Numbered from the stretch's first letter, positions 1 through 23,019 are shown. The stretch: 24,000 nucleotides of DNA from Clostridium scatologenes (GCF_000968375.1 NZ_CP009933.1:1770577-1794576); one strand, 5' to 3'. Numbers and translations: made by a program. The notes: a model not told the origin generated them from the sequence alone.

Positions 1-840
1 ATATATACCAAATTTCAATATAGCCATATGTTTTTCATTTACAAGATAAGATGGAAACCATGTCATAAAAAAGAATAGTATTGAGGCAATTGAAAATCCA
101 CCTATATACATGCCCCACAATTGTCTATTACTAAAAAGATACTTTAATTCTCTTAGGCTAATCTTTCTCTTCTCTTTTATAGTGTCGGAAAGTCCTCCCC
201 CATTTTTAATGAGATCAAGCTCTGCCTTATTAACACCTTTTGCAGAAGCAGGATCATGATAAAAAGCAATCCAACCTATAAAACATAGAACTCCAAGTAC
301 ACCAGTAGTAATAAAAATTGATCTCCATCCAAATGTTACTAAAAGCCAAGTAAGAATTGGAGTGCAAAGTGCAAGTCCTACATATTCCGAGCCAGTATAA
401 GCCCCAATTGCCAAACCACGTTCATGAGATGGAAACCAAGTAGTAACAATACGGTTATTTGCCGGAAAAGCTGGTGCTTCAAAAAAGCCAAGACCAATAC
501 GACAAGCTATCAAACTACTTACGCCAGAAGCAAATGCCATAACTCCTGTAACTAAGGACCAACCTAAAAGAGCAATTCCATATACTAATCTAGGTCCAAA
601 TGTGTCAAGAAACCACCCACATGGAATTTGCATACAAGTATATGCCCAACTCATAGCTGAGAATATCAATCCCATTACAGCAGGATTTAGTGCAAATTCC
701 TTTGATATTGCTGTTGACGCTACCGATAAATTCGCCCTATCAAGATAATTTACAAATGTTATTATGCACACTAATAACAATATAAACCATCTCTTGCCAG
801 TTGCTTTTCTTTCTTCTTTCTCCATAATTACTTCTCTCAT
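1..840 (-). CDS. MFS transporter, anion:cation symporter (ACS; DgoT/GudP/ExuT-like) family; N-terminal 280 aa, with the 3' end lying beyond the window start
   Basis: Not in the ORF track because it is truncated. My reverse-complement translation gives MREVIMEKEERKATGKRWFILLLVCIITFVNYLDRANLSVASTAISKEF...GLGFFEAPAFPANNRIVTTWFPSHERGLA...; the first ~40 and last ~40 codons were checked base by base with no stop, and the middle was translated once without rechecking. The NYLDRxNLSxA and GxxEAxxFP motifs are typical of the ACS family. SD sequence GGAGGGG lies 4-5 nt upstream of the ATG at 840. Confidence 0.85.
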   Translation of the reverse strand, partial: MREVIMEKEERKATGKRWFILLLVCIITFVNYLDRANLSVASTAISKEFALNPAVMGLIFSAMSWAYTCMQIPCGWFLDTFGPRLVYGIALLGWSLVTGVMAFASGVSSLIACRIGLGFFEAPAFPANNRIVTTWFPSHERGLAIGAYTGSEYVGLALCTPILTWLLVTFGWRSIFITTGVLGVLCFIGWIAFYHDPASAKGVNKAELDLIKNGGGLSDTIKEKRKISLRELKYLFSNRQLWGMYIGGFSIASILFFFMTWFPSYLVNEKHMAILKFGIY

Positions 841-2531: not shown

Positions 2532-3401
2532 TTACTTAAAGTATAATTCCTTAACTTCTTTTGCTGGCATTTCTAATCCAGTATATAACTTAAAGGCTTC
2601 TGCTCCTTGCCATAATAACATTCCTGTACCATCTACTGTCTTACATCCAGCAGCTTCAGCATCTTTTAAAAACTTTGTTTGTTTTGGATTATATACTGTA
2701 TCTGACACAACTAAATCTTTTCTAAAAACTGAATTATCTTTTATTGGAGATTCATCTTCATGAGGGTGCATTCCTACTTTTGTTGCATTTACTAAAATAT
2801 TAGAAGATGCAATTTTTTCTCTAAGTTTTTGTCTATCTTCTAAGTCATACAACTCTACAACACACTGTGGCACTTCTTGCTTTAATTTTTCAATAGTTTC
2901 TTCAGCTCTTTTATAGAAATCATCCTTTATATTAAATATGGAAATTTCCTTAGCTCCATCTAAAGCACATTGTACTTGAATAGCTGTTGCAGCACCACCT
3001 GCACCAATAATAGTTATATTTTTACCTTTTACCTCTACTCCATTTTCATTTAAGCTGCGCACAAATCCAACACCATCTGTAATATTTCCAGTTAATTTAC
3101 CATTGTTATTGACAATAGTATTTACTGCTCCTACTATACGAGCAGCTGGAGATAGCTCATCCATATATTTAACTACTTCACTCTTACATGGCATTGTGAC
3201 ATTTGACCCTTTAATATTCAAAGTCTTAATAGCTGCAATAGCATCAGGAACTTTTTCTAAAGAAATGTCAAAGGCTAAATATGCAGAATCTATTCCTGTT
3301 TTTTGAAAGCTGTAATTGTACATAGCAGGAGATCCTGAATGTCCTACTGGTGTACCTATTAAACTATATAAAGCTGTTGTTCCTGAAATTCTTTTTTCCA
3401 T
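2532..3401 (-). CDS. Quinate/shikimate 5-dehydrogenase, YdiB-class paralog (289 aa)
   Basis: SDH-family motifs are present: GHSGSPAMYN, GSNVTMPCK, GAVNT and the GAGGAATA glycine loop. The loop is followed by FNIKDDF; an acidic residue after the beta-strand suggests NAD preference, as in YdiB. It aligns without gaps to the 7597-8469 paralog. Confidence 0.9.
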   Translation of the reverse strand: MEKRISGTTALYSLIGTPVGHSGSPAMYNYSFQKTGIDSAYLAFDISLEKVPDAIAAIKTLNIKGSNVTMPCKSEVVKYMDELSPAARIVGAVNTIVNNNGKLTGNITDGVGFVRSLNENGVEVKGKNITIIGAGGAATAIQVQCALDGAKEISIFNIKDDFYKRAEETIEKLKQEVPQCVVELYDLEDRQKLREKIASSNILVNATKVGMHPHEDESPIKDNSVFRKDLVVSDTVYNPKQTKFLKDAEAAGCKTVDGTGMLLWQGAEAFKLYTGLEMPAKEVKELYFK

Positions 3402-3438: not shown

Positions 3439-5373
3439 TTATATTTGTAATGCTGCATCTAGCGCTTCTTTTGTTGCATCTAATGCTCTACGTGCTCTTG
3501 TTGCATCTCCAATAACATAAGTTTCTTTTACAACTTTTTTAACTTCTTCACTTAATGGATCATAGTTACGTGATCCCATAGCAAGAACTACTGAATCAAA
3601 ACCATGAGCACTTTGTCCTACTCCATCTGCAAGTGTATAATCTACGCCGTCTTCAAAGAATTTTGCAACTTTTGCTCCTGTAATAGTTTTAATTTTATAT
3701 TCATCAAAATCTTTCATTAAATATTTGCGGTGTTCTGATATTACATCAGCTCCTACTTCATCACGAAGTTCTACAACAGTAACATCATGTCCAAGTTCTC
3801 CTAAGAAAGCAGCTGTTTCACATCCAACCATACCGCCTCCTACAACAAGAACTTTTTTTCCACAAACTTCTTTTCCATCAAGAAGATCAACTGCATGGAT
3901 CAATCCAGACTCATTGATTCCTGGTATAGGAAGTACAAGTGGTGTTGCTCCTGTAGCTAAAATTACTGCATCAGGTTTTTCTTGTGATATTATTTCAGGA
4001 GTTACCTTTGTATTCATATGGATTTCCACGCCATATTTGTTACATTTATTGATATAACTGCGTACCATATTTGTAATGTCGCCTTTTCCTGGAGGATAAG
4101 CTGCTAAACGCATTTGTCCACCAAGTGTATCAGTTGCTTCAAACAATATTACATCATGGCCTCTCTTAGCACATACCCATGCTGCAAGCATGCCACCAAC
4201 TCCGCCTCCAACAACTACTACTTTTTTACTAGTATCTGCTTGTTTTAACTCATCTTCTCTTCCAAGTAGTGGATTAACAAGACAAGTAATTGGATTTCCT
4301 TGATACATGTTGCAAACACATCCTTGTAAACAAGCAATACATGGAGTTAATTCATCCAAGCATCCAGCTGCAGCCTTATTAGGTGTTTCTGGATCAGCTA
4401 AGCTTTGACGTCCAAAGGCTACTAAATCACATCTTCCTTCACGAACTAATATTTCTGCATAATGTGGTTCTGTAAAACGTCCTACAACAATAACAGGAAT
4501 ATTTACTGCTCTTTTTATTTCTGTAACTAATTCAGCATTAAAGCCGCCATGTATAACTGTAGGTGCCCACATATATTCATCTTTAAGATGTACAGCACGT
4601 GAAACATGAAGTCCATCAATACCACACTCTTCTAAATAAGCAGCAATTACTGCACTATCGTGAACATCTAATCCACCTGCAACTTCATCACTAGAATTTA
4701 TACGGCATATAATAGCTATAGAATGTCCAACTTTTTTTCGAATATTTTCAATAACTAAACGAGGAAGTCTCATTCTATTTTCAAAGCATCCTCCAAATTC
4801 ATCTACACGTTTGTTTGTTCTTGGAGATAGGAAACTACTAATTAGATATCCATGTGCACAGTGTACTTCTACTGCATCAGCTCCAGCTTTCTTCGCACGT
4901 ACTGCTGCATCACCATATGCTTCAATTAATTCATAAATTTCTTCAGTAGTCATTGCTTCAGGTATATTACGACCTAATGCTGATGGTATTGCTGACGCAG
5001 ATTTTAATGGATATCCAGCAACTTTTGCATTACCTTCAGGTCCTGCATGTTGAAGCTGAATAGATATTTTAGCACCATTTTCATGACAAGCGTCAATGAC
5101 ACGTTTAAAGCTTTCTACTGTACTATCATCAAATAAGCAAGGTTTTCTAGGACCTCCCTTAGCTTCTTTATGCACAACTGTAGCTTCAAAAGTTATTAAT
5201 CCAAAACCACCTTGAGCACGTTTACTATAATAGGCCAATGATTTATCACTCATAGTTCCATCTGTATTTGCAAAATTGTTTCCCATAGGTGAAACAACAA
5301 AACGATTTGGAACTGTCATTGGACCAATTTTTATCGGAGCAAACATGGATTTAAACATCATAAAAAATCTCAT
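3439..5373 (-). CDS. 2-enoate reductase / 2,4-dienoyl-CoA reductase-like flavoprotein (OYE FMN domain + [4Fe-4S] + FAD/NAD(P)H domain, 644 aa)
   Basis: The N-terminal OYE TIM barrel shows PMGNN, HCAHGYLISSFLSP and RxNxRxDEFGG motifs. The Cys cluster is CIACLQGCVCN...C. Two Rossmann GxGxxG motifs are present (VVGGGVGGM and VVGGGMVGCE). The true start may be one of the internal Met codons at 5361/5358 (MMFKSMF...). Confidence 0.9.
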   Translation of the reverse strand: MRFFMMFKSMFAPIKIGPMTVPNRFVVSPMGNNFANTDGTMSDKSLAYYSKRAQGGFGLITFEATVVHKEAKGGPRKPCLFDDSTVESFKRVIDACHENGAKISIQLQHAGPEGNAKVAGYPLKSASAIPSALGRNIPEAMTTEEIYELIEAYGDAAVRAKKAGADAVEVHCAHGYLISSFLSPRTNKRVDEFGGCFENRMRLPRLVIENIRKKVGHSIAIICRINSSDEVAGGLDVHDSAVIAAYLEECGIDGLHVSRAVHLKDEYMWAPTVIHGGFNAELVTEIKRAVNIPVIVVGRFTEPHYAEILVREGRCDLVAFGRQSLADPETPNKAAAGCLDELTPCIACLQGCVCNMYQGNPITCLVNPLLGREDELKQADTSKKVVVVGGGVGGMLAAWVCAKRGHDVILFEATDTLGGQMRLAAYPPGKGDITNMVRSYINKCNKYGVEIHMNTKVTPEIISQEKPDAVILATGATPLVLPIPGINESGLIHAVDLLDGKEVCGKKVLVVGGGMVGCETAAFLGELGHDVTVVELRDEVGADVISEHRKYLMKDFDEYKIKTITGAKVAKFFEDGVDYTLADGVGQSAHGFDSVVLAMGSRNYDPLSEEVKKVVKETYVIGDATRARRALDATKEALDAALQI

Positions 5374-5414
5374 CCTTTCATTTTTTGAAATCCATTAAAA
5401 TTTATAATATATTA

Positions 5415-6269
5415 CTATTTTGCATTTGGAGAAACTTCTGGCCAAGCTTTATCTAATACTTTTATAGTATTGTCATATGTGTGCTTAGCTGCTTCAGCAA
5501 CACCTTTTTCTAAAATAGCATCACTTATTACTTCAACACCAATACATGCAGGTTTTATACCTTTTTCTTTAATCATTTGAACAAAACCTTCTGTCACATT
5601 AATTCCAGTGCCTGGTGCAAGTCTGTCATGCATTGATTCATCTCTTAATATAGATTTTGCATAAGGTCTTTCATAAACATCATTGATCTGGATGGATACA
5701 ATTTTATCAGCTGGTATACCTTCTAATAATTTAATATCATTTTCCTGATTTGCTCTTGCCCAATGCCATGTATCTAATATAAGTTTAGCATTGTCGCAGC
5801 CAGAAGCTTTAACTACTGCCCAACCTTTTTTAATATCTTGAACACCACTGTATGGCATAGGTTCTAAACCAATAACATACTTACCAGCTCTTTGACATAA
5901 TTCTTTTAACTTTTGTGCAGTATGTTCAACACTATAATCTTCCATTAATCCAATATTTATGTGGTTAACACCAAATAATTCACACATATGGAAACACATT
6001 TGTTCTTTATATTTTTCTTCATAAGAACGATTATCTTCAGCCCAAAGTGTAATATATTCAACTTCAGTAACCTTCATATCATATTTTTTAAGAATATCAA
6101 GTATATCAGCATCAAATAAACCTTCATTTAATGCATCTACATATGTTTCAGCACGAAGACCTATTCCTTCATAACCTGCTTCTTTTGCTGCTTTAACTCT
6201 TTCTTCAAATTTACATTGATCTCCTAATGTCCATGAACTAACTGTAATTGGTGGGCATTGATTTTTCAT
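5415..6269 (-). CDS. Xylose isomerase-like TIM-barrel (sugar phosphate isomerase/epimerase superfamily) protein; candidate 3-dehydroshikimate dehydratase or IolE-like ring dehydratase
   Basis: The ORF-track start at 6287 is a TTG without an SD. The ATG at 6269 (MKNQCPPITV...) has SD GAAAGGGG 7 nt upstream. The ILDTWHW and DRLAPGTG motifs are typical of this fold. The specific function is inferred only from the adjacent dehydroquinase and quinate dehydrogenase paralogs. Confidence 0.75.
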   Translation of the reverse strand: MKNQCPPITVSSWTLGDQCKFEERVKAAKEAGYEGIGLRAETYVDALNEGLFDADILDILKKYDMKVTEVEYITLWAEDNRSYEEKYKEQMCFHMCELFGVNHINIGLMEDYSVEHTAQKLKELCQRAGKYVIGLEPMPYSGVQDIKKGWAVVKASGCDNAKLILDTWHWARANQENDIKLLEGIPADKIVSIQINDVYERPYAKSILRDESMHDRLAPGTGINVTEGFVQMIKEKGIKPACIGVEVISDAILEKGVAEAAKHTYDNTIKVLDKAWPEVSPNAK

Positions 6270-6393
6270 GATATTATCCCCTTTCAAATGAAAAATTGTT
6301 ATTAATTTAGCTTAGTTTTTAATTTATGTATTGAAGTATTTAATAAATTAATCAAGTTAGTTTCTACCGGTAGTTTCCTATTAAAATAGGCCT

Positions 6394-6426
6394 AATTTCA
6401 ATTAAGTAATCGATTTAATTGAAATT
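6394..6426. promoter_or_regulatory. Perfect 12-bp inverted repeat in the divergent control region (candidate operator)
   Basis: AATTTCAATTAA-gtaatcgat-TTAATTGAAATT. The 12-mer ATTAAGTAATCG (6401-6412), which runs from the end of the left arm into the spacer, recurs at 9335-9346 in the second divergent region. Confidence 0.35.
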
Positions 6427-6464
6427 TATAAACTCATTATATTATATAAATTTTCATAAAACAA

Positions 6465-6516
6465 ATTGATAATTTCCTATCAATTCATAGATTTTATGTA
6501 TAGTTTATGTTATAAT
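6465..6516 (+). promoter_or_regulatory. Putative lysR-1 promoter with an overlapping LTTR-box-like palindrome
   Basis: Palindrome ATTGATA-N6-TATCAAT at 6465-6484. The -35-like TAGATT lies at 6488-6493, followed by a 17-nt spacer. The extended -10 TGTTATAAT has its TATAAT at 6511-6516. Confidence 0.4.
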
Positions 6517-6544
6517 TGTGCCAATAATATTTTGAAAGCGAGGC

Positions 6545-7435
6545 ATGAAATTGAATTTATATCATTTACGCTATTTCGTAACTCTAGCACACTTAGAACA
6601 TTACACAAGAGCTGCTGAGAAATTAATGATTACTCAGCCAAGCTTGAGCCATGCAATATCCTTATTAGAAAATGAACTAGGCATCTCTTTATTTGAAAAA
6701 GACGGTAGAAACATTGTACTTACCAAATATGGAAAAGTATTTTTAAATAATGTAGAAAAATCCTTAGAAATTCTTGATTCTAGTGTTAAAACTTTAAAAC
6801 TTATTGGCAGTGGTGAAGGTAAAATTCAGCTAGCCTTTCTTCGCACATTAGGAACGGATTTCGTACCAGATATTACTCGAAAATTTCTAGAAACTCATAG
6901 TGAAAAATCAATAGAATTTAATTTCAACACTATAGCAACTTCTGTTGATATTATCCAAGGTCTCAAGGAGAGAAAATACGACATTGCTTTCTGCTCGAAA
7001 ATCGGTAAAGAACAAGGTATAGAATTTATACCAGTTGCTAACCAAGAGCTAGTACTAATTGTTCCTACTGACCATCCACTTGCAGATAAAAATTCAATTG
7101 ATTTAATTGATACAATCCCGTACCCTCAAATTTTTTTTACAAGCAAAAGTGGACTTAGACCTATAGTTGATGATTTGTTTACACAAATCGGTAAAGAACC
7201 CAAAATTGTTTATGAAGTTGAAGAAGATCAAGTAATTGCTGGACTTGTTGCTAAAAATTTTGGCATTGCAGTTTGTCCTAACATGCCTATTTTGAATTCC
7301 ATGGATTTGAAAGTAATTAAAATTTCAAGTCCAAATTTTGAAAGACTATTTTATTTAGCAATGTTGAAAGATGCTTACCTTGCACCAGTTGTTCATGAAT
7401 TTAAAAATTTTGTTATAGAAAATACTGAAATATAA
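6545..7435 (+). CDS. LysR-family transcriptional regulator (paralog 1)
   Basis: N-terminal wHTH LRYFVTLAHLEHYTRAAEKLMITQPSLSHAISLLENELG plus a C-terminal substrate-binding domain. It is divergent from the 6269-1135 gene set. Confidence 0.95.
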   Translation: MKLNLYHLRYFVTLAHLEHYTRAAEKLMITQPSLSHAISLLENELGISLFEKDGRNIVLTKYGKVFLNNVEKSLEILDSSVKTLKLIGSGEGKIQLAFLRTLGTDFVPDITRKFLETHSEKSIEFNFNTIATSVDIIQGLKERKYDIAFCSKIGKEQGIEFIPVANQELVLIVPTDHPLADKNSIDLIDTIPYPQIFFTSKSGLRPIVDDLFTQIGKEPKIVYEVEEDQVIAGLVAKNFGIAVCPNMPILNSMDLKVIKISSPNFERLFYLAMLKDAYLAPVVHEFKNFVIENTEI

Positions 7436-7471
7436 AGTTTAGTTGTATTATATGTATACAAAATCTTATTT

Positions 7472-7525
7472 CAGAGGACAATTGACAAAGATCATCCTTC
7501 ATTGTCATCTGTCAATTGTCCTCTG
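7472..7525. terminator. Large GC-richer hairpin between convergent genes (putative bidirectional terminator or palindromic element)
   Basis: Perfect 16-bp arms CAGAGGACAATTGACA (7472-7487) / TGTCAATTGTCCTCTG (7510-7525) with a 22-nt loop. There is no clean U-tract on either side. CCTCTG is duplicated directly after the 3' arm. Confidence 0.5.
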
Positions 7526-7596
7526 TCCTCTGAAAAAGTTGTGTCGCATTATCCTCATATTAAATCTAAGTTTTGTATATATCAAAATTGAATTAA

Positions 7597-8469
7597 TTAA
7601 TATTTAATGTTTAATACTTTTTTCATGTGTTCTATAGGCATTTCTTTTCCAGTCCATAGTTTGAAAGCTGCTGCTCCTTGGAATAACATCATTCCAAAAC
7701 CATTCATTGTTTTACAGCCTACTTCTTTTGCCATTTTTAACAATGCTGTTTCTGCAGGTGCATAAACTGTGTCTGTTACAATTAAATCTGGTCTTAAGAA
7801 GCTTGGATCTGGAATATAAGTTTGACCTTCTAAAGGTTTCATTCCAACACCAGTTGCATTAGCAAATAAATAGCTATCTGCAATTTCCTCTTTTAATTTT
7901 GCAAGATCATCTAAATCATATAAAGTTGCTTTACAGTTAGTTTTTTCATTAATATCTTTTACTGTTTTCTTTCCTCTTTCGAAGAATTCATCCTTACGGT
8001 TAAATATTGATATTTCTTTCACTCCATCTAAAGCTGCTTGTATTTCTATTGCTGTAGCTGCTCCACCTGCTCCTGCTATTGTTATTTTCTTACCAATAAC
8101 ATCAATTCCAGCATCTTTTAATGATTGCATATAACCAATACCATCTGTGATGTGTCCAGTTAAAACACCATTATCATTTACAATTGTATTAACTGCACCG
8201 CAAAGTTCTGCTGCTTCTGATAACTTGTCAAGATACTTATGTACCACTGTTTTATTTGGCATTGATACATTTGATCCACGAACTTTCATTGCTCTGAAGC
8301 CTTTTATGGTATCCTCTAATTGTTCATTACCTACTTCAAATGCAAGATAAGCATAATCCAAACCTAATTTTGCAAATGCTTCGTTGTGCATTGCTGGTGA
8401 ACTTGAATGTCTAATTGGGTATGCTATTAATCCTATAAGTTCTGTGTGCCCTGTAATTCTTTCTGCCAT
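7597..8469 (-). CDS. ydiB: Quinate/shikimate dehydrogenase, YdiB-like (290 aa)
   Basis: From memory it is closely similar to E. coli YdiB over its full length (YPIRHSxSPxMxN, GSNVSMPNK, GAVNTIVND, GAGGAATA, FNRKDEFF, GMKPLE, GCKTxxGxGM). It lies immediately downstream of aroD. SD AGGAG is present. Confidence 0.92.
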   Translation of the reverse strand: MAERITGHTELIGLIAYPIRHSSSPAMHNEAFAKLGLDYAYLAFEVGNEQLEDTIKGFRAMKVRGSNVSMPNKTVVHKYLDKLSEAAELCGAVNTIVNDNGVLTGHITDGIGYMQSLKDAGIDVIGKKITIAGAGGAATAIEIQAALDGVKEISIFNRKDEFFERGKKTVKDINEKTNCKATLYDLDDLAKLKEEIADSYLFANATGVGMKPLEGQTYIPDPSFLRPDLIVTDTVYAPAETALLKMAKEVGCKTMNGFGMMLFQGAAAFKLWTGKEMPIEHMKKVLNIKY

Positions 8470-8526
8470 AATAATCGTCTCCTTTATATTTAATTTATAT
8501 TTTTATATAGTTTTTTATTATAATAA

Positions 8527-9294
8527 CTATTTATTAGCACTAATAAGTGAAAGTATTTTGTATAATTCATTTGCTTCTAATTGTCCTGGAGCTGATGCAA
8601 CCTTTGCTGATCCAAAAGTAAGCGCTGATCCAAAAGTTTCACCTGCTAAACGACTTATAACTCCTAGTGGTCCCATAGACATAGTTATAATCGGTGTTTT
8701 ATCATGATCACGTGTCATTTCATTTGTAGCTGTCAATAATTCAATTACATCTGTGCTACTTAAAGGCATTACTGCTATCTTAGGTACATCTGCTCCTAAT
8801 TCTTGCATTTTGCACAATCTTGCTATTATTTCATTTTTGCTAGGTGTTTTATCAAAATCATGATTAGACATAACTACTTTTACATCATGTTCATGTGCCA
8901 CTTTTACAATTTTCTTTACGGCTTCTTCATCACCAATAAATAACTCCACATCAATCATATCTGCATTGCCTGTTGCTGATATTGCCTTTTGTAATTCTAT
9001 ATAATATTCTAATGTAATTTCCTTTGCTCCACCTTCTTTAGCACTCCTAAAAGTAACTAACAAAGGTGTATCTCCTAATGCTTTTCTAACTTCAGCTAAA
9101 ATTTCTTTTACTTTTTCAATTTTATATACGTCTTCGTAAAAATCTATTCTCCATTCTGCAACATCCAATTTAATTTCTTTTAAATAAGAAACATCCTTCA
9201 TAATTTCTTCATTGCTGCATCCCATGAATGGCACTGCTATTTTGGGAATTCCCTGACCTAATTTCATATTTCTTACTTGAACTATACTTTTCAT
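8527..9294 (-). CDS. aroD: 3-dehydroquinate dehydratase, type I
   Basis: 255 aa, the typical type I length and layout. Family motifs AEWRIDFY, LVTFRSAKEGG, SNHDF and KIAVMP (Schiff-base Lys region) are present. Confidence 0.95.
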   Translation of the reverse strand: MKSIVQVRNMKLGQGIPKIAVPFMGCSNEEIMKDVSYLKEIKLDVAEWRIDFYEDVYKIEKVKEILAEVRKALGDTPLLVTFRSAKEGGAKEITLEYYIELQKAISATGNADMIDVELFIGDEEAVKKIVKVAHEHDVKVVMSNHDFDKTPSKNEIIARLCKMQELGADVPKIAVMPLSSTDVIELLTATNEMTRDHDKTPIITMSMGPLGVISRLAGETFGSALTFGSAKVASAPGQLEANELYKILSLISANK

Positions 9295-9329
9295 TTTTTA
9301 CTTCCTTTCTTAACTTTTTAAATTATTGA

Positions 9330-9355
9330 TTAAGATTAAGTAATCGTTATCTTAA
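9330..9355. promoter_or_regulatory. Inverted repeat centred on TAAGTAATCG upstream of aroD (candidate operator)
   Basis: TTAAGAT-taagtaatcgtt-ATCTTAA. It shares the 12-mer ATTAAGTAATCG with 6401-6412, in the same orientation. Confidence 0.3.
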
Positions 9356-9538
9356 AGAATTAAAAAAATTATTACTTATAAATTTTAACAGATAATACTG
9401 TACAAAACACTACATAATAAAAGCTTTTCTACTATAATTGTATATTATATAACAGTTTAGTTATTTTTTTAACATATCTTGACTTTATTATACTGCAATA
9501 CATTTGATAATTCTAATACATATTTTTATGATTATTAA

Positions 9539-9567
9539 TAGTTTTTATCTATCAATTATGATATACT
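9539..9567 (+). promoter_or_regulatory. Putative lysR-2 promoter
   Basis: TAGTTT (9539-9544), a 17-nt spacer, then extended -10 TGATATACT (TATACT at 9562-9567). The spacer contains the palindrome TATCA-ATTA-TGATA. The layout aligns with the other two lysR promoters. Confidence 0.4.
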
Positions 9568-9597
9568 ATGTATTATTCTATTTAGGAGGACTACTCT

Positions 9598-10494
9598 ATG
9601 AACTTAAGCCAATTATACTATTTCAGAAAAATTGCTCAATTAGAGCACTTCAGACAAGCAGCTTTAGAATTAAATGTATCTCAACCTAGTTTAAGTAAAT
9701 CAATGCTAAATTTAGAATCAGAACTGGGTATTTGCTTATTTGATAAAGAAGGAAGAAATGTTCATCTAACTAAGTATGGCAAAATTTTTTTACAATATGT
9801 AGAAAATATTTTAAACGAATTAGAAAATGCCAAAAATAAGATGAATCAATTAGCAAGCAGTGAACATGGTCATGTTGATATAGCATATATTTCGCCATTA
9901 GCACAATATTATATACCTGATACAGTGCGTAGTTTTTTAAATATAGAACAAAATAAAAATGTTACTTTCACATTTAAACAAGGTTTTTCTTACGAAATGA
10001 TAGAGGAACTTAAAAATGATAAATATGATTTAATTTTTTGTTCTCACATAGAAAATGAACCTGATATTATGTTTGTTCCAATTATTAAAAAGGATTTATT
10101 TGTTATTGTTCCTTTTGATCATCCGCTTTCAAAATTTGAAAGCATTGATTTGAAAGATATTGAACCATATCCTTTAGTAGCATATGATAAAACTTCTGCT
10201 ATGGGAAAAACTACTTTAAAATTATTGAAAAGTATTAATTTGAATCCAAAAATTATTTGTGAAGCTGCTGATGAATATGCTATTTCTTCACTAGTTGCTG
10301 CAAACTTTGGAGTAGCTATTATAGCTGAAGCGCCTGCTCTTGCACATGCTAAAGTAAAAAAAATAAACATCAACAGCCCAAAATATTCTCAAATAATATA
10401 TCTTGCATATAAAAAAAATAAGTATTTTCCTTCTGCTGTTATTAATTTTATTTCATATATAAAAGAAAAAAGTTCTGTAAGTGAATCACTATAA
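9598..10494 (+). CDS. LysR-family transcriptional regulator (paralog 2)
   Basis: wHTH LYYFRKIAQLEHFRQAALELNVSQPSLSKSMLNLESELG. SD AGGAGG lies 9 nt upstream. It is divergent from aroD-ydiB. Confidence 0.95.
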   Translation: MNLSQLYYFRKIAQLEHFRQAALELNVSQPSLSKSMLNLESELGICLFDKEGRNVHLTKYGKIFLQYVENILNELENAKNKMNQLASSEHGHVDIAYISPLAQYYIPDTVRSFLNIEQNKNVTFTFKQGFSYEMIEELKNDKYDLIFCSHIENEPDIMFVPIIKKDLFVIVPFDHPLSKFESIDLKDIEPYPLVAYDKTSAMGKTTLKLLKSINLNPKIICEAADEYAISSLVAANFGVAIIAEAPALAHAKVKKININSPKYSQIIYLAYKKNKYFPSAVINFISYIKEKSSVSESL

Positions 10495-10499
10495 AAATA

Positions 10500-10534
10500 G
10501 CCGATTAAGGTAAAATCAAATCACCTTAATCGGC
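10500..10534. terminator. Bidirectional intrinsic terminator between lysR-2 and the second enoate reductase
   Basis: 12-bp perfect stem GCCGATTAAGGT / ACCTTAATCGGC with an 11-nt loop. T-runs follow on both strands (ACTATTTTT on plus, CTATTTTTA on minus). Confidence 0.75.
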
Positions 10535-10558
10535 ACTATTTTTACTTAATTTAAATTA

Positions 10559-12565
10559 TTACTTAAATGCACCCATAACCTCTAAAGTTTTAACTACATT
10601 TCTCCCCTCTTCAACACCAGATATTATTCTTCTTGCTCTTACACTATCACCAATGTTAAGAAGTTTTACATTATTTTCTGAAGCATACTCTTCAACCATA
10701 GGGAATTCAGCATTTTCTGATCTCATTCCTAGGCATACAAAACCATAGTCGAAGTTTATATCTACAGCAGCTCCTTCAGGATTTTTCACTGTAAACGAAC
10801 TATCATTAACAGTCTGAAGTGCAGTATTTGCAAGCTGTTTAACATTATTTACTTTCATCATATGATATACATCAAGCTTTGTATTAGTATCTAAATCTTT
10901 TCCTATTACTGGCATCATTTCAATGACATCAACATCTGCTCCTCTTTCAGCAAAGAATTCTACAACATCAAGTCCTACTGCTCCTCCGCCTACTACTACA
11001 ACCTTTTTATCTTTACAGTCTTTATCAAACTCTTTGATATTATTAATAAATCCAAATGTTGATTTGACATTTGATCCAGCTTTATCTACACGATCCAACA
11101 ATCCTGCTATTGGAGGAAGTAATGGTTTTGATCCTGTTGCATTTATTATAAGGTCTGGATTTAATTCATCTAGTACTTCCTTTGAAGCTTTTGTATTAAG
11201 TTTTATTTTAAGGTTAGGAAGTTCCTTTACTCTATTTTGTAAATATTCTACAAAATAATGAATTCTTGCTTTTGCTGGAATTGTTCCGATCATCCAAGCT
11301 AAACCGCCTAATCTATCCTTTTGTTCTAATAGTGTCACATTACAACCTACTTCTGCAGCAGTACAGGCAGCTTCCAGTCCTGCTGTACCTCCACCAATAA
11401 CTACAACGTTAACAGATTTCTTTACTTGTTTTTCTTTATAAGCATCTTCAAATAAAAGATCTGGATTTATACTACAACGAATTGGTTGTGATTTTGCTAA
11501 ACGATGATCAGCACATCCTATATTACAAGATATACATCTTCTAAGAAGGTGCTCCTGTCCATCCGCAACCTTATTAGCCCAATATGGTTCTGCAATTAAA
11601 CCACGACCCATAGCTAGAAGATCTGCATCTCCTTTAGCAATAATTTCTTCAGCAACTTTTGGGGAACGAATGTTTCCTGAAGTTATTACTGGTTTATTGA
11701 ATTTTTCTTTAAAAGCTTTAGCCATATAGCTTCTCCAGCCTTCTGCTAAACTCATTTTATCATGTTGAAGATATAAAGTATCATTTTGTGCTATAGAAAT
11801 ATTTAGGAAATCTACTTTTTCCTGCATATATCCCATCAATTCTAAAGAATCTTCAAGAGTATTACCTCCCTCAATCATATCATCCGCACTAATTCTTATA
11901 GAAATTGGAAACCTAGGACCAACTGCAGCTCTCACACTATCTATAACCATTACAGCAAATCTTGCTCTATTTTCAGCACTTCCACCAAATTCATCAGTTC
12001 TATCATTAAATAAAGGTGATAAGAATTGATTAAGTAAATATGAATGACCTGCATGAATTTCAACTGAATCAAATCCTGCTAATTGAGCTCTTGCAGCAGC
12101 TTCTCCATATTTTTTTGCAATATCTTTCATTTCCTCTACAGTTAAAGGTCTTGGAATTGCTCCACCTGTCTTTGAAGGAATATTAGAAGCAGAAACTGCT
12201 TGTACTCCATCTAATCTTGCAGCATAAGCAGATGCTCCAGCATGGTTAAGCTGAATTGAAACTTTAGCTCCATAAGCATGAAGTCTTTCCACTAATGTAT
12301 AAAGTCCAGGTACATATTGGTTATCATCAATTCTGCACTGCTTTGTTCCGTTAGTTCCCATTGGAAAATCAATACAAGCATTTTCAACTATGATAAGTCC
12401 TGTACCACCTTTTGCTCTTAATTCATAATATTTAATCATCTCTTCAGATACTTCTGCACTAACAGTAGCAAAATTACTACCTATTGGTGGCATAACAGTC
12501 CTATTTCTAAGAGTCATTCCATTTATAGTAATTGGTGACAAAAGATTTGGATATTTGCTTTTCAT
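10559..12565 (-). CDS. 2-enoate reductase / 2,4-dienoyl-CoA reductase-like flavoprotein, second paralog (668 aa)
   Basis: OYE-domain motifs PPIGSN, HAGHSYLLNQFLSP and NDRTDEFGG are present. The [4Fe-4S] motif is CISCNIGC-x11-C. Two GxGxxG motifs are present (VIGGGTAGLE and VVGGGAVGLD). SD GGAGG is present. Confidence 0.9.
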   Translation of the reverse strand: MKSKYPNLLSPITINGMTLRNRTVMPPIGSNFATVSAEVSEEMIKYYELRAKGGTGLIIVENACIDFPMGTNGTKQCRIDDNQYVPGLYTLVERLHAYGAKVSIQLNHAGASAYAARLDGVQAVSASNIPSKTGGAIPRPLTVEEMKDIAKKYGEAAARAQLAGFDSVEIHAGHSYLLNQFLSPLFNDRTDEFGGSAENRARFAVMVIDSVRAAVGPRFPISIRISADDMIEGGNTLEDSLELMGYMQEKVDFLNISIAQNDTLYLQHDKMSLAEGWRSYMAKAFKEKFNKPVITSGNIRSPKVAEEIIAKGDADLLAMGRGLIAEPYWANKVADGQEHLLRRCISCNIGCADHRLAKSQPIRCSINPDLLFEDAYKEKQVKKSVNVVVIGGGTAGLEAACTAAEVGCNVTLLEQKDRLGGLAWMIGTIPAKARIHYFVEYLQNRVKELPNLKIKLNTKASKEVLDELNPDLIINATGSKPLLPPIAGLLDRVDKAGSNVKSTFGFINNIKEFDKDCKDKKVVVVGGGAVGLDVVEFFAERGADVDVIEMMPVIGKDLDTNTKLDVYHMMKVNNVKQLANTALQTVNDSSFTVKNPEGAAVDINFDYGFVCLGMRSENAEFPMVEEYASENNVKLLNIGDSVRARRIISGVEEGRNVVKTLEVMGAFK

Positions 12566-12814
12566 TTTTCTTCCTCCATTTTATACCTATTTTATCTTTA
12601 TATAGTAGAATTTAGAAACAACATGGAAAGTGTTTTCTTAACATATTGCATTTATATCGTGTTTGTATCAAGAATTGGATTTTCACTACATTAAATACTT
12701 TTTTATCAATACAACTAAACTTAAATGAATGTGTTTGTTAATTAACATTTATCTCGTGATTCATTATAGCAAAACCGTTATCATAAATCTAATTCATATT
12801 TTCCTTTAAAGCTA

Positions 12815-12844
12815 TAGAATTTATTTATATATTCTATTATAATG
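12815..12844 (+). promoter_or_regulatory. Putative lysR-3 promoter with an embedded inverted repeat
   Basis: TAGAAT (12816-12821), a 17-nt spacer, then TATAAT (12839-12844). The inverted repeat ATAGAAT-N10-ATTCTAT (12815-12838) spans the -35 element and the spacer. Confidence 0.4.
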
Positions 12845-12912: not shown

Positions 12913-13824
12913 ATGAATTTGAAACAGCTTCAATACTTTCGTATTTTAGCACAAACTGAGCATTACACAAAAGCAGCTGAAAAATTATACATAACACAAC
13001 CTAGTTTAAGTTACAGTATTTCAGAATTAGAGAGGGAATTTGGTACTCAATTATTTGAAAAGGAAGGTAGAAATGTAAAACTGACAAAATACGGACGCTT
13101 TTTTCTTTCTTATGTAGAAAAAGCCCTTGATGAATTGGATTTGGGTAAAAATCTATTGTTAAAAATGGTAAGCCCTACGGAAGGAAAGGTTGACCTAGCT
13201 TTTATTTACACTTTAGGTTCCAAATTTGTACCTAACATAGTTCAAAGCTTTTTAAATGAAACTAGTTATAAAAATGTAGAATTTTCTTTTGCTCAAGGAA
13301 ACACTCAATATTTAATTAATAACCTTAAAGAAGGAAAATTTGACCTGGTTTTTTGCTCTTTTGTTGAAAATGAACCAAATATTGATTTTATTCCTATAGC
13401 ACAAGAAGAATTAGTTATAATTGTACCTAAAGATCATCCTCTTTCTAATTACAAAAGTATAAGTTTAAATGAAACTTCACCTTACCCTTTTGTTTTCTTT
13501 AGCAACGAAAGTGGTTTGCGCCCACTTATAGACAAAATGTTTAAAGATTCAAATATAGTACCTAAAATTGCATGTGAGGCTGAAGAGGATACTGCTATAG
13601 CTGGCTTTGTGGCTATCAATTATGGAATAGCAATTATTCCTAATATACCATCTTTAAAAAATTTTGATGTAAAAATACTTAAAATCAAACAACCAAATTA
13701 TAAAAGATTTATTTATGCAGCTACCGTTAAAAATCGTTATAACACTCTTGCTACAGATTCTTTTCGTTCATTTGCAATTAAATATGGTAAAAAAAATTAT
13801 TTAGACACAAATAAGTACATATAA
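12913..13824 (+). CDS. LysR-family transcriptional regulator (paralog 3)
   Basis: wHTH LQYFRILAQTEHYTKAAEKLYITQPSLSYSISELEREFG. SD AAGAGGTG is present. It is divergent from the 10559-12565 reductase. Confidence 0.95.
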   Translation: MNLKQLQYFRILAQTEHYTKAAEKLYITQPSLSYSISELEREFGTQLFEKEGRNVKLTKYGRFFLSYVEKALDELDLGKNLLLKMVSPTEGKVDLAFIYTLGSKFVPNIVQSFLNETSYKNVEFSFAQGNTQYLINNLKEGKFDLVFCSFVENEPNIDFIPIAQEELVIIVPKDHPLSNYKSISLNETSPYPFVFFSNESGLRPLIDKMFKDSNIVPKIACEAEEDTAIAGFVAINYGIAIIPNIPSLKNFDVKILKIKQPNYKRFIYAATVKNRYNTLATDSFRSFAIKYGKKNYLDTNKYI

Positions 13825-14121: not shown

Positions 14122-14616
14122 TTATTTTGCTAATTCTAGTATTTTTTCAATTACATCTTCAATTTTACCATTATTCTCAATTCGAAAATCTGAATATTTT
14201 TTATAAAGTTCATATCTTTCATCTAAAAGTTCATATAATTTTCCTACTCCATCTTTCAAAAGAGGTCTACTTAATACATTTATGTCTTTTGCAATATTTT
14301 CTACAGGTCTATCTATAAAAATTACAATTCCATTTTTCTTAAGGTTTTCTATATTTGAAAAATTTTTGATCACTCCACCACCAGTGGATATTATAGCTGA
14401 TTTTTTTGCACTTACTTCACAAACAGCTTCTTTTTCTAGTTTTCTAAAATAATCTTCTCCATTTTTGAATATATCTGGTATAGTTTTTCCTTCTCTATCT
14501 TCTATATAATTATCCATATCAATGAAATCTGTTCTCAATTTTTCATATAAAATTTTTCCTATTGTTGTTTTTCCGCTGCCTGGCATTCCTATTAATACTA
14601 TATTTTTACTCATCAT
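14122..14616 (-). CDS. aroK: Shikimate kinase
   Basis: Walker A motif GMPGSGKTT and family motifs DxD and STGGG are present. I prefer the ATG at 14616 (MMSKNIVLIG; SD AAGGTG 8 nt upstream) over the ORF-track ATG at 14634, which has no SD. Confidence 0.93.
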   Translation of the reverse strand: MMSKNIVLIGMPGSGKTTIGKILYEKLRTDFIDMDNYIEDREGKTIPDIFKNGEDYFRKLEKEAVCEVSAKKSAIISTGGGVIKNFSNIENLKKNGIVIFIDRPVENIAKDINVLSRPLLKDGVGKLYELLDERYELYKKYSDFRIENNGKIEDVIEKILELAK

Positions 14617-14643
14617 ATTTATAACACCTTTCATTTCAAAAAT

Positions 14644-15459
14644 TTAACAATTGTATTTTTCAATAACTTCATATATATGCTTTTTAATTTCTTGACTAAT
14701 TTTCATTTCCTGCCAAATTTCTTGTGATGCTATAGCTTGAGCTACTAACATATAAAGTCCATTTACAGTTTTCACTCCAATTTCTCTAGCCTCTCTTAAA
14801 AAAATAGTTTCTATAGGATTATATATTAAATCTACTGCCGAACTAAATTTACTTAATATATTTTTATCCACTGAACAACTTTCTATCTTAGGATACATTC
14901 CACAAGGAGTACAATTTATAATTATATCCTTGCATTTAAGCTTATTCATATCTTCATAAGATATAACTTTAAAATCTTTGAGCGTATCTTTGGTATTTTC
15001 AGGAATCCTACTCACAAAAACTATATCCTTTATTCCGTTATCTAGTAAATAGTGAAACACTGCCTTTGAAGCTCCACCAGTACCTAGTATAACAGCTTCT
15101 TTATTATAGGTATCTATTTCTTCTCTTTTTAATGACTCACCAAAACCATAATAATCCGTATTATATCCTACAAGTTTATTTTCTTTAAAATCTATAGTGT
15201 TAATGGCTCCTATTTTTGATGCTTCCATAGATACATCATCTAAGTATTTCATAATGTTCACTTTGTGAGGTATAGTTACATTTATTCCCTTAGCTCCAAG
15301 TGCTTTTAATCCAATTACAGCTTTTTTTAAATCTTCATTGTTTACTTCGAACAAATTATAAAAACCATTTAAATTTAAATCTTCTAATATTAAACTGTGT
15401 ATTTTAGGAGAAATGCTGTGTCCCAAAGTTTTTCCAATTAGTCCATATAAATTTCCCAT
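14644..15459 (-). CDS. aroE: Shikimate 5-dehydrogenase (AroE class, biosynthetic)
   Basis: Motifs GHSISPKIH, GINVTIPHK, GAINT and the GTGGASKA loop followed by VSR (basic residue, NADP type). At 271 aa it is shorter and more divergent than the two YdiB-class paralogs. Confidence 0.9.
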   Translation of the reverse strand: MGNLYGLIGKTLGHSISPKIHSLILEDLNLNGFYNLFEVNNEDLKKAVIGLKALGAKGINVTIPHKVNIMKYLDDVSMEASKIGAINTIDFKENKLVGYNTDYYGFGESLKREEIDTYNKEAVILGTGGASKAVFHYLLDNGIKDIVFVSRIPENTKDTLKDFKVISYEDMNKLKCKDIIINCTPCGMYPKIESCSVDKNILSKFSSAVDLIYNPIETIFLREAREIGVKTVNGLYMLVAQAIASQEIWQEMKISQEIKKHIYEVIEKYNC

Positions 15460-15465
15460 TTATAT

Positions 15466-16590
15466 TTAACTCACCTCACCTTTGTAGTTTCCCAAAAACT
15501 TATAATATAAACTTTCTTCTTCTATAGTCTTTAAAGCACTTCTTGTATTTTCATTTAATATATTTCCTTGAAAATCGATATAGAAAAAGTATTGCCATGA
15601 TTTGCCTACAATTGGTCTTGACTCTATTTTCATCATATTTAAATTATTATCTGAAAAATGCTTTAAAATTTTATACAAGGCTCCTACCTTATGAGATATT
15701 GATAAAATAACACTTATCTTATCACAGTTAACATCAGATTTTTCTTTTTTTCCTATAATTATAAACCTAGTATAATTGTTGCTATTATAATTTATATTTT
15801 CTTTCAAAATTTTTAATCCATAAAATTCTGCTGCCTTTTTGCTTGCCACACAAGCTTTATTTTTCAAATTTTCCTTGCTTACATACTCTGCACTTTTAGC
15901 AGTATTAAAGTATGGAATTAACCTCCAATCGTCGTGAATATCAAAAAATTCTTTACACTGCAGAAAACCTTGTGTATGTGAATAAACTTCATTTATATCG
16001 CAAATTTCAGCATTCTCAATTCCCATTAAGTTATGATCTACCTTTACACATTTTTCACCAACTATATAAAATCCATATTCCCTCATAAGATCATAAACTT
16101 CAGAAATACCTCCTGTTGATGAATTCTCAATAGGTAGAACACCATATTTTATGTCACCTTTTTGTACAGCTTCAAAAATATCCTTAAAACTCTTAAAATG
16201 TTCTGACTTTACATTGTCACCAAAATACTCATTTACCGCTTGGTGACTAAATGAGGCAGGAACGCCTTGAAACCCTACTTTAAATTCACTATCTTCATCT
16301 ACTTTACAATTACAGGATACCTTAGAGAGTATTTCCTTTTGAGATTCTCTACTTATACTCATTAAATCTTGAAGAAACTCTTTTAAATAGTTTTGCAAAG
16401 CTTTATCTTCAACGTTCTTCAAATGCTTGTTTATAATTTGATTTTCTCTACTATTATCCAATACTTCCATGTGATTTTCTATTTTATAATGAGCTACATT
16501 AAAAACTACTGACATTCTCTTTTTAAAAAGTTCTACTAATTCTTCATCTATTTCATTAATTTGTTCTCTTAAATAGTTTAAATCTTCCAT
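15466..16590 (-). CDS. pheA: Bifunctional chorismate mutase / prephenate dehydratase (P-protein) with a C-terminal ACT domain
   Basis: The N-terminal CM helix is LREQINEIDEELVELFKKR. A PDT domain follows, and the ACT region carries the ESRP motif. The ORF-track start (16599) is a GTG. The ATG at 16590 has SD AAGGAAAG 8 nt upstream. Confidence 0.93.
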   Translation of the reverse strand: MEDLNYLREQINEIDEELVELFKKRMSVVFNVAHYKIENHMEVLDNSRENQIINKHLKNVEDKALQNYLKEFLQDLMSISRESQKEILSKVSCNCKVDEDSEFKVGFQGVPASFSHQAVNEYFGDNVKSEHFKSFKDIFEAVQKGDIKYGVLPIENSSTGGISEVYDLMREYGFYIVGEKCVKVDHNLMGIENAEICDINEVYSHTQGFLQCKEFFDIHDDWRLIPYFNTAKSAEYVSKENLKNKACVASKKAAEFYGLKILKENINYNSNNYTRFIIIGKKEKSDVNCDKISVILSISHKVGALYKILKHFSDNNLNMMKIESRPIVGKSWQYFFYIDFQGNILNENTRSALKTIEEESLYYKFLGNYKGEVS

Positions 16591-16604
16591 GTTTATCACT
16601 TTCC

Positions 16605-17678
16605 TTAATCTATAAATTGAATTATCGCTATTGCAGCTGCAGCTTCCACCACTGGGAGTGCCCTAGGTATGATGCAAGGATCATGTCTTCCTTTTATCTC
16701 TATTTTAGCATTTTCTCTCTTTTGTATATCCACTGTATTTTGAATTTTTGCAATAGATGGTGTTGGTTTTACAGCTGTTCTAAATATTAAAGGCATTCCA
16801 TTTGTAATTCCACCTAAAATTCCTCCATTATTATTACTGTAAGTTTTTATTTTTTCATTTTCAATATAAAATCCATCATTGGCTTCTGAACCCTTCAGTT
16901 TTGATATATTAAAGCCTTCACCAAATTCTACTCCTTTTACTCCTGGAATAGAAAATAATAAATGTGATAAAATACTTTCTACAGAGTCAAAGAAAGGTTC
17001 TCCAAGACCTACTGGTAAATTATTTACTGCTGTCTCTATAACTCCACCTAAAGAATCCATTTCTTCCTTAGCTTTTATTATGCTGTTTTTCATATTAATA
17101 CCTATTTCTTCAGTCAAAACAGGAAATTTACTTTCATTTAAACCTTTTAAGATTTCACTTTCTATTTCAGTCATATTAAAGCTTACATCCTCTATTTTAG
17201 ATATACTTTTTATATGACTTCCAATAAATATACCTTTTTTCTCTAATATTTGTTTGCAGATAGCACCTGCAAATACTAAGGGAGCTGTTATCCTTCCTGA
17301 AAAATGCCCTCCTCCTCTATAATCATTAAAACCTTGATATTTAACATGTCCTGTTAAATCTCCATGGGAAGGTCTCATTAAATTCTTAGTTTTTTCATAA
17401 TCCTTGGAATGTTGATTTTTATTATAAATAATAGCACACAAAGGTGTTCCTGTAGTTCTTCCATTAAAATATCCACTTAATATTTCAAAATTGTCTTCCT
17501 CTTTTCTAGGAGTAGAAAGCTCGCTTCCTCCTGGAGCCCTCCTTCTCATCTCTTTATTTATATAATTCAAATCTAATTCTATACCTGGCTTAAGTCCATC
17601 AATATTTATTCCTATAGCCTTTCCATGAGACTCTCCAAAAATCGAAAGTCTTACTTTACTGCCCCAAACTCCACTCAT
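16605..17678 (-). CDS. aroC: Chorismate synthase
   Basis: Motifs FGESHG, SxRxTA-like GRITAPLV and GRHDPC are present. SD AGGAGG is present. The start overlaps the aroA 3' end. Confidence 0.97.
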
Positions 17679-18936: not shown

Positions 18937-18955
18937 AAAATTTAGCCCCCTATTT

Positions 18956-20017: not shown

Positions 20018-20020
20018 AAT

Positions 20021-20893: not shown

Positions 20894-20896
20894 ATT

Positions 20897-22909: not shown

Positions 22910-22949
22910 AAGACTTTGCAAATTAAATGCAAAGTCTTATTTTTTTTTT
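22910..22949 (+). terminator. Intrinsic terminator
   Basis: AAGACTTTGCA-aattaaa-TGCAAAGTCTT followed by a T10 run (22940-22949). Confidence 0.85.
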
Positions 22950-23019
22950 AAAAGTTGTAACTATTTTTTACTTTCTTAATACTATATATAGTGAAGATAG
23001 ATTTTACGGAGGTATGTAC

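Follow-up and report, generated by a model that had tools for sequence, protein, structure and literature searches.

A 24,000-nt window of the Clostridium scatologenes chromosome (NZ_CP009933.1:1770577-1794576) encodes two paralogous iron-sulphur (Fe-S) flavin reductases, ER_A and ER_B, within an island of quinate and shikimate genes. The analysis comes close to establishing both as cytoplasmic ene-reductases with Fe-S and flavin cofactors, akin to the clostridial enoate reductases, and as dedicated parts of a qui regulon such as that of Listeria. We favour, at about even odds (a probability of roughly 0.5), a reading in which they are NADH-dependent ene-reductases acting on enones derived from 3-dehydroshikimate, with quinate and shikimate serving as an electron sink. 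The window, which has ~30% G+C and comes from a complete, single-contig genome of 5.75 Mb, had been described before in a reading made from the DNA alone, referred to below as the sequence-only reading.

Architecture and active site of ER_A and ER_B

ER_A (3439-5373) and ER_B (10559-12565) are minus-strand open reading frames (ORFs) of 644 and 668 aa. The true start of ER_A is probably the ATG at 5361, which gives 640 aa, because an AAAGGA ribosome-binding site precedes it by 8 nt and nearly all homologues are 640 aa long. Both proteins cover almost the whole profile of Oxidored_FMN (PF00724), the FMN-binding TIM barrel of the old yellow enzyme (OYE) type, with E values of 5.6e-79 for ER_A and 1.1e-74 for ER_B, and both match Pyr_redox_2 (E 1.2e-36 and 9.9e-28) as well as related Rossmann families. 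A four-Cys motif, C-x2-C-x3-C-x11/12-C, is found at residues 345-364 of ER_A and 344-364 of ER_B, where it aligns with the cysteines of FadH and of 2-naphthoyl-CoA reductase (NCR). Paired GxGxxG motifs occupy residues 389-394 and 512-517 in ER_A, and 391-396 and 526-531 in ER_B. The full enoate reductase architecture that the sequence-only reading had ascribed to both proteins is confirmed in every one of these elements. With the fold assigned from sequence matches to solved structures, NCR (6QKG) followed by FadH (1PS9) are the best solved matches of both enzymes (E 1e-89 to 1e-63). ER_A and ER_B are themselves 33% identical over their full length (E 2e-100).

The active site separates the two enzymes from their closest structural relatives. 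Both carry H-x-x-H-x-Y at residues 171-176, which reads H-C-A-H-G-Y in ER_A and H-A-G-H-S-Y in ER_B. At the same position of the HMMER alignment to the solved structures FadH has G-S-E164-G-Y166 and NCR has A-I-V-G-Y. The catalytic Glu164/Tyr166 arrangement of FadH is therefore not reproduced, as the position of Glu164 is taken by a His in ER_A and ER_B, and the FadH half of the label first given to these proteins fails at this point. In the classical OYE site a pair of His residues holds the oxygen of the activating carbonyl or carboxylate, and a Tyr donates the proton to C-alpha. ER_A and ER_B have this His-x-x-His-x-Tyr arrangement and no CoA-activating neighbours, which points to a free enone or enoate rather than a thioester as the probable substrate. 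In both proteins the second beta-strand ends in an acidic residue (VTVVE in ER_A and VDVIE in ER_B), which suggests NADH as the likely electron donor. ER_A and ER_B are predicted to be NADH-dependent, and probably also oxygen-sensitive.

Correspondence with the Listeria qui operons

ER_A belongs to a compact gene group, module A, in which the plus-strand regulator gene LysR1 (6545-7435) stands opposite a minus-strand series of four genes. These encode, in order, a xylose-isomerase-like TIM-barrel protein (5415-6287; AP_endonuc_2, PDB 2G0W) homologous to QuiC2-class dehydroshikimate dehydratases (Lmo2234), ER_A, the shikimate-dehydrogenase-family protein SDH_A (2532-3401) and a transporter of the major facilitator superfamily (MFS; 1135-2337), the latter two identified by profile match. 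The TIM-barrel gene lies 53 nt before ER_A and SDH_A 37 nt after it, and the MFS gene is the last conserved gene of the module. ER_B is divergent from LysR3 (12913-13824, plus strand). It is taken to be monocistronic because a strong intrinsic-terminator-like hairpin of 14 pairs with a T-tract (10534-10500, minus strand) lies just past its stop codon and LysR3 faces it. Between the two reductase units lie LysR2 (9598-10494, plus strand) and, divergent from it on the minus strand, the type I 3-dehydroquinate dehydratase gene aroD (8527-9294) and SDH_B (7597-8469), a YdiB-like quinate/shikimate dehydrogenase gene, both likewise assigned by profile match. This map bears out several points of the sequence-only reading, namely that each reductase has a LysR regulator of its own (LysR1 and LysR3, both QuiR-type), that ER_A is grouped with a dehydrogenase, a TIM-barrel protein and a permease while ER_B stands alone, and that the genes around them are quinate/shikimate genes, as judged by profile matches and by the likeness of the TIM barrel to Lmo2234.

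In Listeria, QuiR (Lmo0488) and QuiR2 (Lmo2233) are encoded divergently upstream of the qui1 and qui2 operons (10.1101/2025.04.08.647683, citing Prezioso 2018 and Xue 2020), which encode YdiB, AroD, SdhD and the dehydratase QuiC2 in addition to 'uncharacterized' genes (10.1101/2025.04.08.647683). The target of QuiR is the shikimate-activated operon headed by lmo0489 (PMC11495319, Table 1), an OYE homologue whose reaction 'remains to be elucidated' (PMC10269891). The TIM-barrel protein of the window matches Lmo2234 (PDB 2G0W) with an E value of 3.7e-95 over residues 10-287. The effector domain of QuiR (Lmo0488, PDB 5TED) is the best solved relative of all three LysR proteins, LysR3 being the closest (E 1.6e-73), followed by LysR1 (1.5e-49) and LysR2 (7.2e-48). 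ER_A is 77% identical to a 641-aa protein of Listeria monocytogenes (P0063, in a cluster of 2177 members) and ER_B shares 61% identity with a Listeria protein of 664 aa (P0191, in a cluster of 1737 members), whereas comparison of each with the non-cognate Listeria reductase gives only 32-35% identity. The two dehydrogenases pair in the same manner, SDH_A being 70% identical to a Listeria SDH of 289 aa and SDH_B 69% identical to one of 291 aa. The 641-aa and 664-aa proteins were tied to lmo2235 and lmo0489 by their NCBI names, SDH co-clustering, reciprocal identities, the published papers and locus-tag order.

The matches of the TIM barrel, regulators, reductases and dehydrogenases to Listeria qui proteins identify the island, at the level of sequence, as a gene-for-gene counterpart of the whole Listeria qui regulon. 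Module A (LysR1 with TIM-ER_A-SDH_A-MFS) corresponds to qui2, and module B (LysR3 and ER_B with LysR2 and aroD-SDH_B) to qui1. ER_A and ER_B are then the equivalents of the uncharacterised reductase members of the Listeria qui operons, as their pairwise identities indicate. A full-text literature search found no function assigned to these reductases.

In the 90%-identity database clusters, the 289-aa SDH is filed with the 641-aa reductase and the 291-aa SDH with the 664-aa reductase. Most likely this is a clustering artefact that stems from fused or read-through calls of adjacent genes, or else a sign of adjacency.

Divergent intergenic regions and a shared operator-like box

The three divergent intergenic regions align over a block of ~60 nt beside the lysR genes. 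Each contains an operator-like box of one type on the plus strand, ATAGATTTTATGTAT at 6487-6501 in the LysR1/TIM region, ATAGTTTTTATCTAT at 9538-9552 in the LysR2/aroD region and ATAGAATTTATTTAT at 12814-12828 in the LysR3/ER_B region. With the pattern ATAG-WW-TTTAT-N-TAT, the window yields these three boxes and no others, where 0.01 would be expected, but the count by itself is circular, as the pattern was derived from the same sequences. As independent evidence, exact matches to the pattern turn up between LysR and TIM at the corresponding sites in C. thailandense and in four Dorea genomes, and between LysR and ER_B in Ca. C. helianthi and Lachnotalea. This recurrence across genera supports the placement of both reductase units under one putative operator type, and hence within a single predicted regulon. 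By homology to QuiR, its inducer is likely to be shikimate.

Distribution and phylogeny

A scan of one genome per species yielded 61 loci encoding ER_A relatives, and these, with 8-kb flanks, were searched by tblastn with the window proteins. The nearest relatives of the genome are Clostridium drakei SL1 and C. carboxidivorans P7, whose ER_A orthologues are 99% and 97% identical, which places the host in the C. scatologenes group of acetogens. The arrangement of a LysR gene with TIM-ER_A-SDH_A-MFS is retained at ~45 of the 61 loci, in Clostridium, Terrisporobacter, Anaerostipes, Dorea, Anaerobutyricum hallii, Alkalibaculum, Lachnotalea and other Lachnospiraceae. SDH_A is consistently downstream of ER_A, and a TIM-barrel and an SDH gene essentially always flank members of the ER_A clade. 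An ER_B orthologue (54-59% or 84-98% identical) falls within the flanks at 16 loci; C. ragsdalei and C. ljungdahlii have the two units joined as aroD-SDH_B-ER_B-TIM-ER_A, all on one strand. When all ORFs in the flanks of the 61 loci were clustered, none of the conserved groups was an esterase, a CoA ligase or transferase, a decarboxylase or a ring-cleavage enzyme, and the conserved neighbourhood likewise contains no ring-hydrolysis or beta-oxidation genes. What does recur, beyond the cassette itself, are transporters (MFS and TRAP), a fusion of chorismate mutase to shikimate kinase and a membrane protein without a family assignment. The last, a protein of ~475 aa, is predicted to cross the membrane ~9 times and matches neither Pfam nor NCBIfam models. 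It is encoded just downstream of the cassette MFS gene at 17 loci in Dorea, Terrisporobacter, Anaerotignum and Lachnotalea (for example L017:12524-13951, L008:6826-8220 and L060:8756-10114) and is absent from the window. It could be a transporter of an undescribed family.

A FastTree phylogeny of 84 sequences, which include the genome's own paralogues, resolves the two reductases into separate clades. The ER_A clade (52 rows, support 98) includes the Listeria 641-aa protein together with C. difficile and Neobacillus proteins, and each of its locus-derived members adjoins a TIM-barrel gene, SDH_A or both. Its sister clade (nine rows, 57-60% identical) lies outside any qui context. The ER_B clade (17 rows, support 100) includes the Listeria 664-aa protein, and its members lie beside a QuiR-like LysR gene, SDH_B or aroD. 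ER_A and ER_B therefore group as ancient paralogues and not recent copies, a divergence for which the sequence-only reading had already argued and which the well-supported clades, each with its own Listeria orthologue, uphold. That the two act on different substrates, as was proposed with it, is plausible. When residues specific to each clade were sought, a single suggestive position emerged, 185, which is Arg in ER_A, Gln in the sister clade and Leu in ER_B. Five further full-length Fe-S flavin reductase paralogues are encoded in the genome (at C1: 724269, 819625, 1214905, 4795573 and 4820061; loci L062-L066). They are 29-36% identical to ER_A and ER_B, keep His-x-x-His and fall outside both clades.

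The cassette is rare, as the TIM-barrel protein was found in three of 398 other genomes in a class-level sample of Clostridia (~1%), too few for co-occurrence statistics, and the ER_A orthologues of Listeria and Neobacillus (P0063 and P0065) nest within a Clostridium subclade at 76-77% identity. This nesting of Bacilli sequences and the rarity of the cassette in Clostridia both suggest horizontal spread of the module between Clostridia and Bacilli.

Other features of the window

Beyond LysR3 lies a minus-strand biosynthetic operon, aroK-aroE-pheA-aroC-aroA-aroB-tyrA-aroF (14122-21910), which has no dehydroquinase gene. The aroD gene of the island is the sole type I copy in the genome, and a type II dehydroquinase (aroQ) is encoded at C1:471605-472018. 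With a separate type II enzyme elsewhere in the genome, the LysR2-controlled aroD is therefore regarded as accessory or catabolic and not as the biosynthetic enzyme. At the opposite end, a second MFS transporter gene of the D-galactonate/ACS type (1-840, minus strand; Pfam/NCBIfam) is truncated by the window edge, and a hairpin search placed a terminator-like hairpin (1096-1059) after the MFS gene of module A. Scans of the window with Rfam and for tRNAs gave no match. A 259-aa ORF without a Pfam match (22927-23706, plus strand) is highly repetitive and rich in Cys, Trp, Gly, Tyr and Pro, with CSPWFGGG-like repeats, HHHHRRDCCC blocks and a YPYYPKYP tail, and its DNA contains tandem repeats of 15-30 nt. 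Its predicted product resembles a spore-coat or structural protein.

Discussion

Reduction of the hydroaromatic ring, a role that the sequence-only reading had put forward, is the reading that best fits the evidence. In the scheme we propose, the MFS carriers would import quinate and shikimate, and SDH_B with AroD, or SDH_A, would convert them to 3-dehydroshikimate with the production of NADH. In 3-dehydroshikimate, at once an enone and an enoate, the ring C=C is in conjugation with a ketone as well as a carboxylate, and this makes the compound an ideal substrate for an OYE-type enzyme. Electrons would pass from NADH via FAD and the [4Fe-4S] cluster to FMN, which would deliver hydride to the C=C to give 3-dehydro-dihydroshikimate, and an SDH paralogue could reduce this ketone further to dihydroshikimate. 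The QuiC2-type TIM-barrel enzyme may strip the C5 hydroxyl from the saturated ketone by alpha-deprotonation and beta-elimination, as it does on dehydroshikimate, and subsequent reduction by a reductase and an SDH would yield 3,4-dihydroxycyclohexanecarboxylate. Each module would in this way be a net consumer of NADH and a fermentative electron sink. Should the Fe-S reductases be inactive, for example in air, the dehydratase would act directly on dehydroshikimate to form protocatechuate, which is the Listeria phenotype.

Reduction of such substrates by bacteria has precedents. The title of Carr et al. (1957), as listed in PMC10558750, has lactic acid bacteria reducing quinic acid to dihydroshikimic acid, and Eggerthella and Sutterella reduce the enoate of shikimate as a respiratory acceptor via an unrelated flavin reductase (10.1101/2022.12.26.521950). 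We raise as a tentative extension, more doubtful than the general scheme, that ER_A and ER_B are the missing genes of the reductive hydroaromatic pathway described biochemically in lactic acid bacteria (1957-74), the later steps of which were reportedly described by Whiting and Coggins (1971, 1974). Module B, with its YdiB-type dehydrogenase, AroD and ER_B, would then lead from quinate to dihydroshikimate, and module A, with SDH_A, ER_A and the QuiC2-type enzyme, from shikimate to 3,4-dihydroxycyclohexanecarboxylate.

A number of points weigh against the electron-sink reading. We infer the substrate of the reductases from gene context, and the His pair is common to all seven paralogues of the genome; it speaks against FadH-type chemistry but not specifically for a hydroaromatic substrate. 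The three TIM-barrel carriers among the 398 genomes all have an adjacent ER_A and only one of the three has an ER_B orthologue. A scheme that requires both reductases cannot be general, as ER_B is missing from some carriers. There is no convincing box for the redox sensor Rex upstream of either reductase gene. The search gave 19 matches at up to three mismatches against 9.7 expected. The best intergenic matches are a Rex-like site, TTGTTAATTTATTAACTT (2451-2468, two mismatches), in the 194-nt spacer between SDH_A and the MFS gene, and a Rex-like palindrome, TTGATA-N6-TATCAA (6466-6483, three mismatches), beside the LysR1 box and between the conserved blocks of the LysR1/TIM region. Finally, the characterised output of the Listeria system is protocatechuate, for which no reductase is needed.

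The rival explanations, in decreasing likelihood, are redox housekeeping, a protocatechuate reductase, a hydroxycinnamate reductase and FadH. ER_A and ER_B might be NADH oxidases, diaphorases or quinone reductases that recycle the NADH of the dehydrogenases, or detoxify quinones derived from protocatechuate, and leave the ring untouched. Many homologues of both are annotated as 'NADH oxidase', quinone reduction is common in the OYE family and the protocatechuate route makes NADH that needs recycling. Shikimate-fed Listeria moreover accumulates protocatechuate and displays signs of toxic derivatives (10.1101/2025.04.08.647683). Two ancient paralogues that are kept at 60-77% identity from Clostridia to Listeria, in a fixed order with the TIM barrel and SDH, nevertheless exceed the need for a generic diaphorase, for which the five other paralogues of the genome would be available. 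Strict anaerobes such as Dorea and the acetogens also have no O2 to reduce, and overall we regard a housekeeping role as improbable. A dearomatising protocatechuate reductase has considerably lower odds again. The TIM barrel would make protocatechuate and ER_A would reduce its ring in the manner of the OYE-type NCR, which would open a route for anaerobic catabolism. In keeping with this, ER_A always follows the dehydratase gene, NCR (6QKG) is the best solved match of both enzymes and O2-dependent cleavage of protocatechuate is impossible for anaerobes. The substrate of NCR is, however, a CoA thioester, and the conserved neighbourhood of the 61 loci has no CoA ligase or transferase and no ring-hydrolysis or beta-oxidation genes. 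NCR also lacks the His-His pair of the two reductases, and the reduction of a free catecholic acid by NADH is thermodynamically unfavourable.

A role on hydroxycinnamates was the alternative offered by the sequence-only reading. Chlorogenate gives quinate and caffeate, and FldZ-like reductases of caffeate or cinnamate could take the second half while the qui genes take the first. ER_A and ER_B do share their family and architecture with FldZ, an NADH-dependent reductase of cinnamate and p-coumarate, although the activity of FldZ on caffeate is 0.8% of that on cinnamate (PMC5882074). A MerR gene marks the genuine fldZ context (10.1101/2025.11.25.690607), and the neighbours of the reductases in the window are instead QuiR-type LysR genes, regulators of the shikimate-sensing kind, with LysR3 the closest of them to QuiR. 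In nearly all loci ER_A is lodged between the dehydratase and SDH genes, and the 8-kb flanks of the 61 loci conserve no esterase that could split chlorogenate. The proposal is set aside as a slim prospect, a shade below protocatechuate reduction. Slimmest by far are the odds that the two are FadH-type 2,4-dienoyl-CoA reductases of fatty-acid beta-oxidation, located among aro and qui genes by chance. FadH (1PS9) is the second-best structural relative and '2,4-dienoyl-CoA reductase-like' is among the database names, but both enzymes have a His at the position of the catalytic Glu164, the qui gene order is conserved across families, and beta-oxidation or CoA-activating genes are found neither in the window nor in the conserved surroundings of the 61 loci.

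Soil, silage, fruit and the gut are rich in the plant acids quinate, shikimate and chlorogenate. What becomes of these acids without oxygen is known in chemical terms: they yield dihydroshikimate, dihydroxycyclohexanecarboxylate and, in the end, precursors of hippurate. If ER_A and ER_B reduce 3-dehydroshikimate-derived enones as proposed, their clades would mark an electron-sink metabolism common to acetogens, gut Lachnospiraceae, C. difficile and Listeria. The 'protocatechuate biosynthesis' operons of Listeria would become a branch of a reductive pathway. Enone and enoate reductases for polar cyclic substrates would also join the biocatalysis toolbox. Under the more tentative extension to the pathway of lactic acid bacteria, the reductases would provide gene markers for the first steps from dietary quinate and shikimate to cyclohexane acids in gut Lachnospiraceae, and the dead-end protocatechuate of Listeria would be the aerobic output when the reductases are off. 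What the window itself contributes is the pairing of the two reductase types in one place, with a separate QuiR paralogue for each. To this the analysis adds a tree that splits two orthologous clades from a context-free sister clade, an active-site contrast with FadH and NCR, and an operator-like box conserved across genera.

Comparison with known systems

Among characterised enzymes, FldZ of C. sporogenes (2-enoate reductase, EC 1.3.1.31) shares with ER_A and ER_B the OYE/FMN barrel, the four-Cys Fe-S motif, the FAD/NADH domain and His-x-x-His-x-Tyr (PMC5882074). The NADH dependence and oxygen sensitivity of clostridial 2-enoate reductases fit what would be expected of the two enzymes from their sequences. 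FldZ, compared here by description, acts on aromatic enoates and has a MerR neighbour, whereas ER_A and ER_B have QuiR-type LysR neighbours and hydroaromatic-pathway partners. FadH (1PS9) and NCR (6QKG) have the same three-domain fold but act on CoA thioesters and lack the His pair, with Ser-Glu164 in FadH and Ile-Val in NCR. The bile-acid reductases BaiCD/BaiH, the long form of the bilirubin reductase BilR and the mycofactocin-system OYE, gut-anaerobe Fe-S flavoenzymes that reduce enones, provide the best full-length NCBIfam models for both proteins. The scores of ER_A and ER_B fall well below the curated cut-offs in each case, at 554 and 471 against 825 for BaiCD, 486 and 370 against 750 for long-form BilR, and 492 and 426 against 793 for mycofactocin OYE_2. 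No bai or bil genes lie near ER_A or ER_B.

The shikimate-induced flavin reductase of Eggerthella lenta and Sutterella (Little et al., 10.1101/2022.12.26.521950) has a role like the one proposed here, the reduction of a ring C=C as an anaerobic electron sink. Unlike ER_A and ER_B, it belongs to a fumarate-reductase-like family, is respiratory and acts on shikimate itself, and no dehydrogenase/dehydratase cassette is described with it (10.1101/2022.12.26.521950). The closest parallel is the Listeria qui system, which has in common with the window QuiR-type LysRs, a QuiC2-type TIM barrel, two SDH paralogues, a type I dehydroquinase, MFS carriers and two Fe-S flavin reductases, and in which the pair quiR/lmo0489 parallels LysR3/ER_B. 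In the window, unlike in Listeria, these parts are gathered into one 14-kb island beside an aro biosynthetic operon, the QuiR paralogues number three rather than two, ER_B is monocistronic and aroD-SDH_B is under its own regulator, and the host, an acetogen, is strictly anaerobic. Studies in Listeria cover the protocatechuate branch only and leave the reductases uncharacterised. Both enzymes belong to a known superfamily, and the island is a further instance of the published Listeria qui system.

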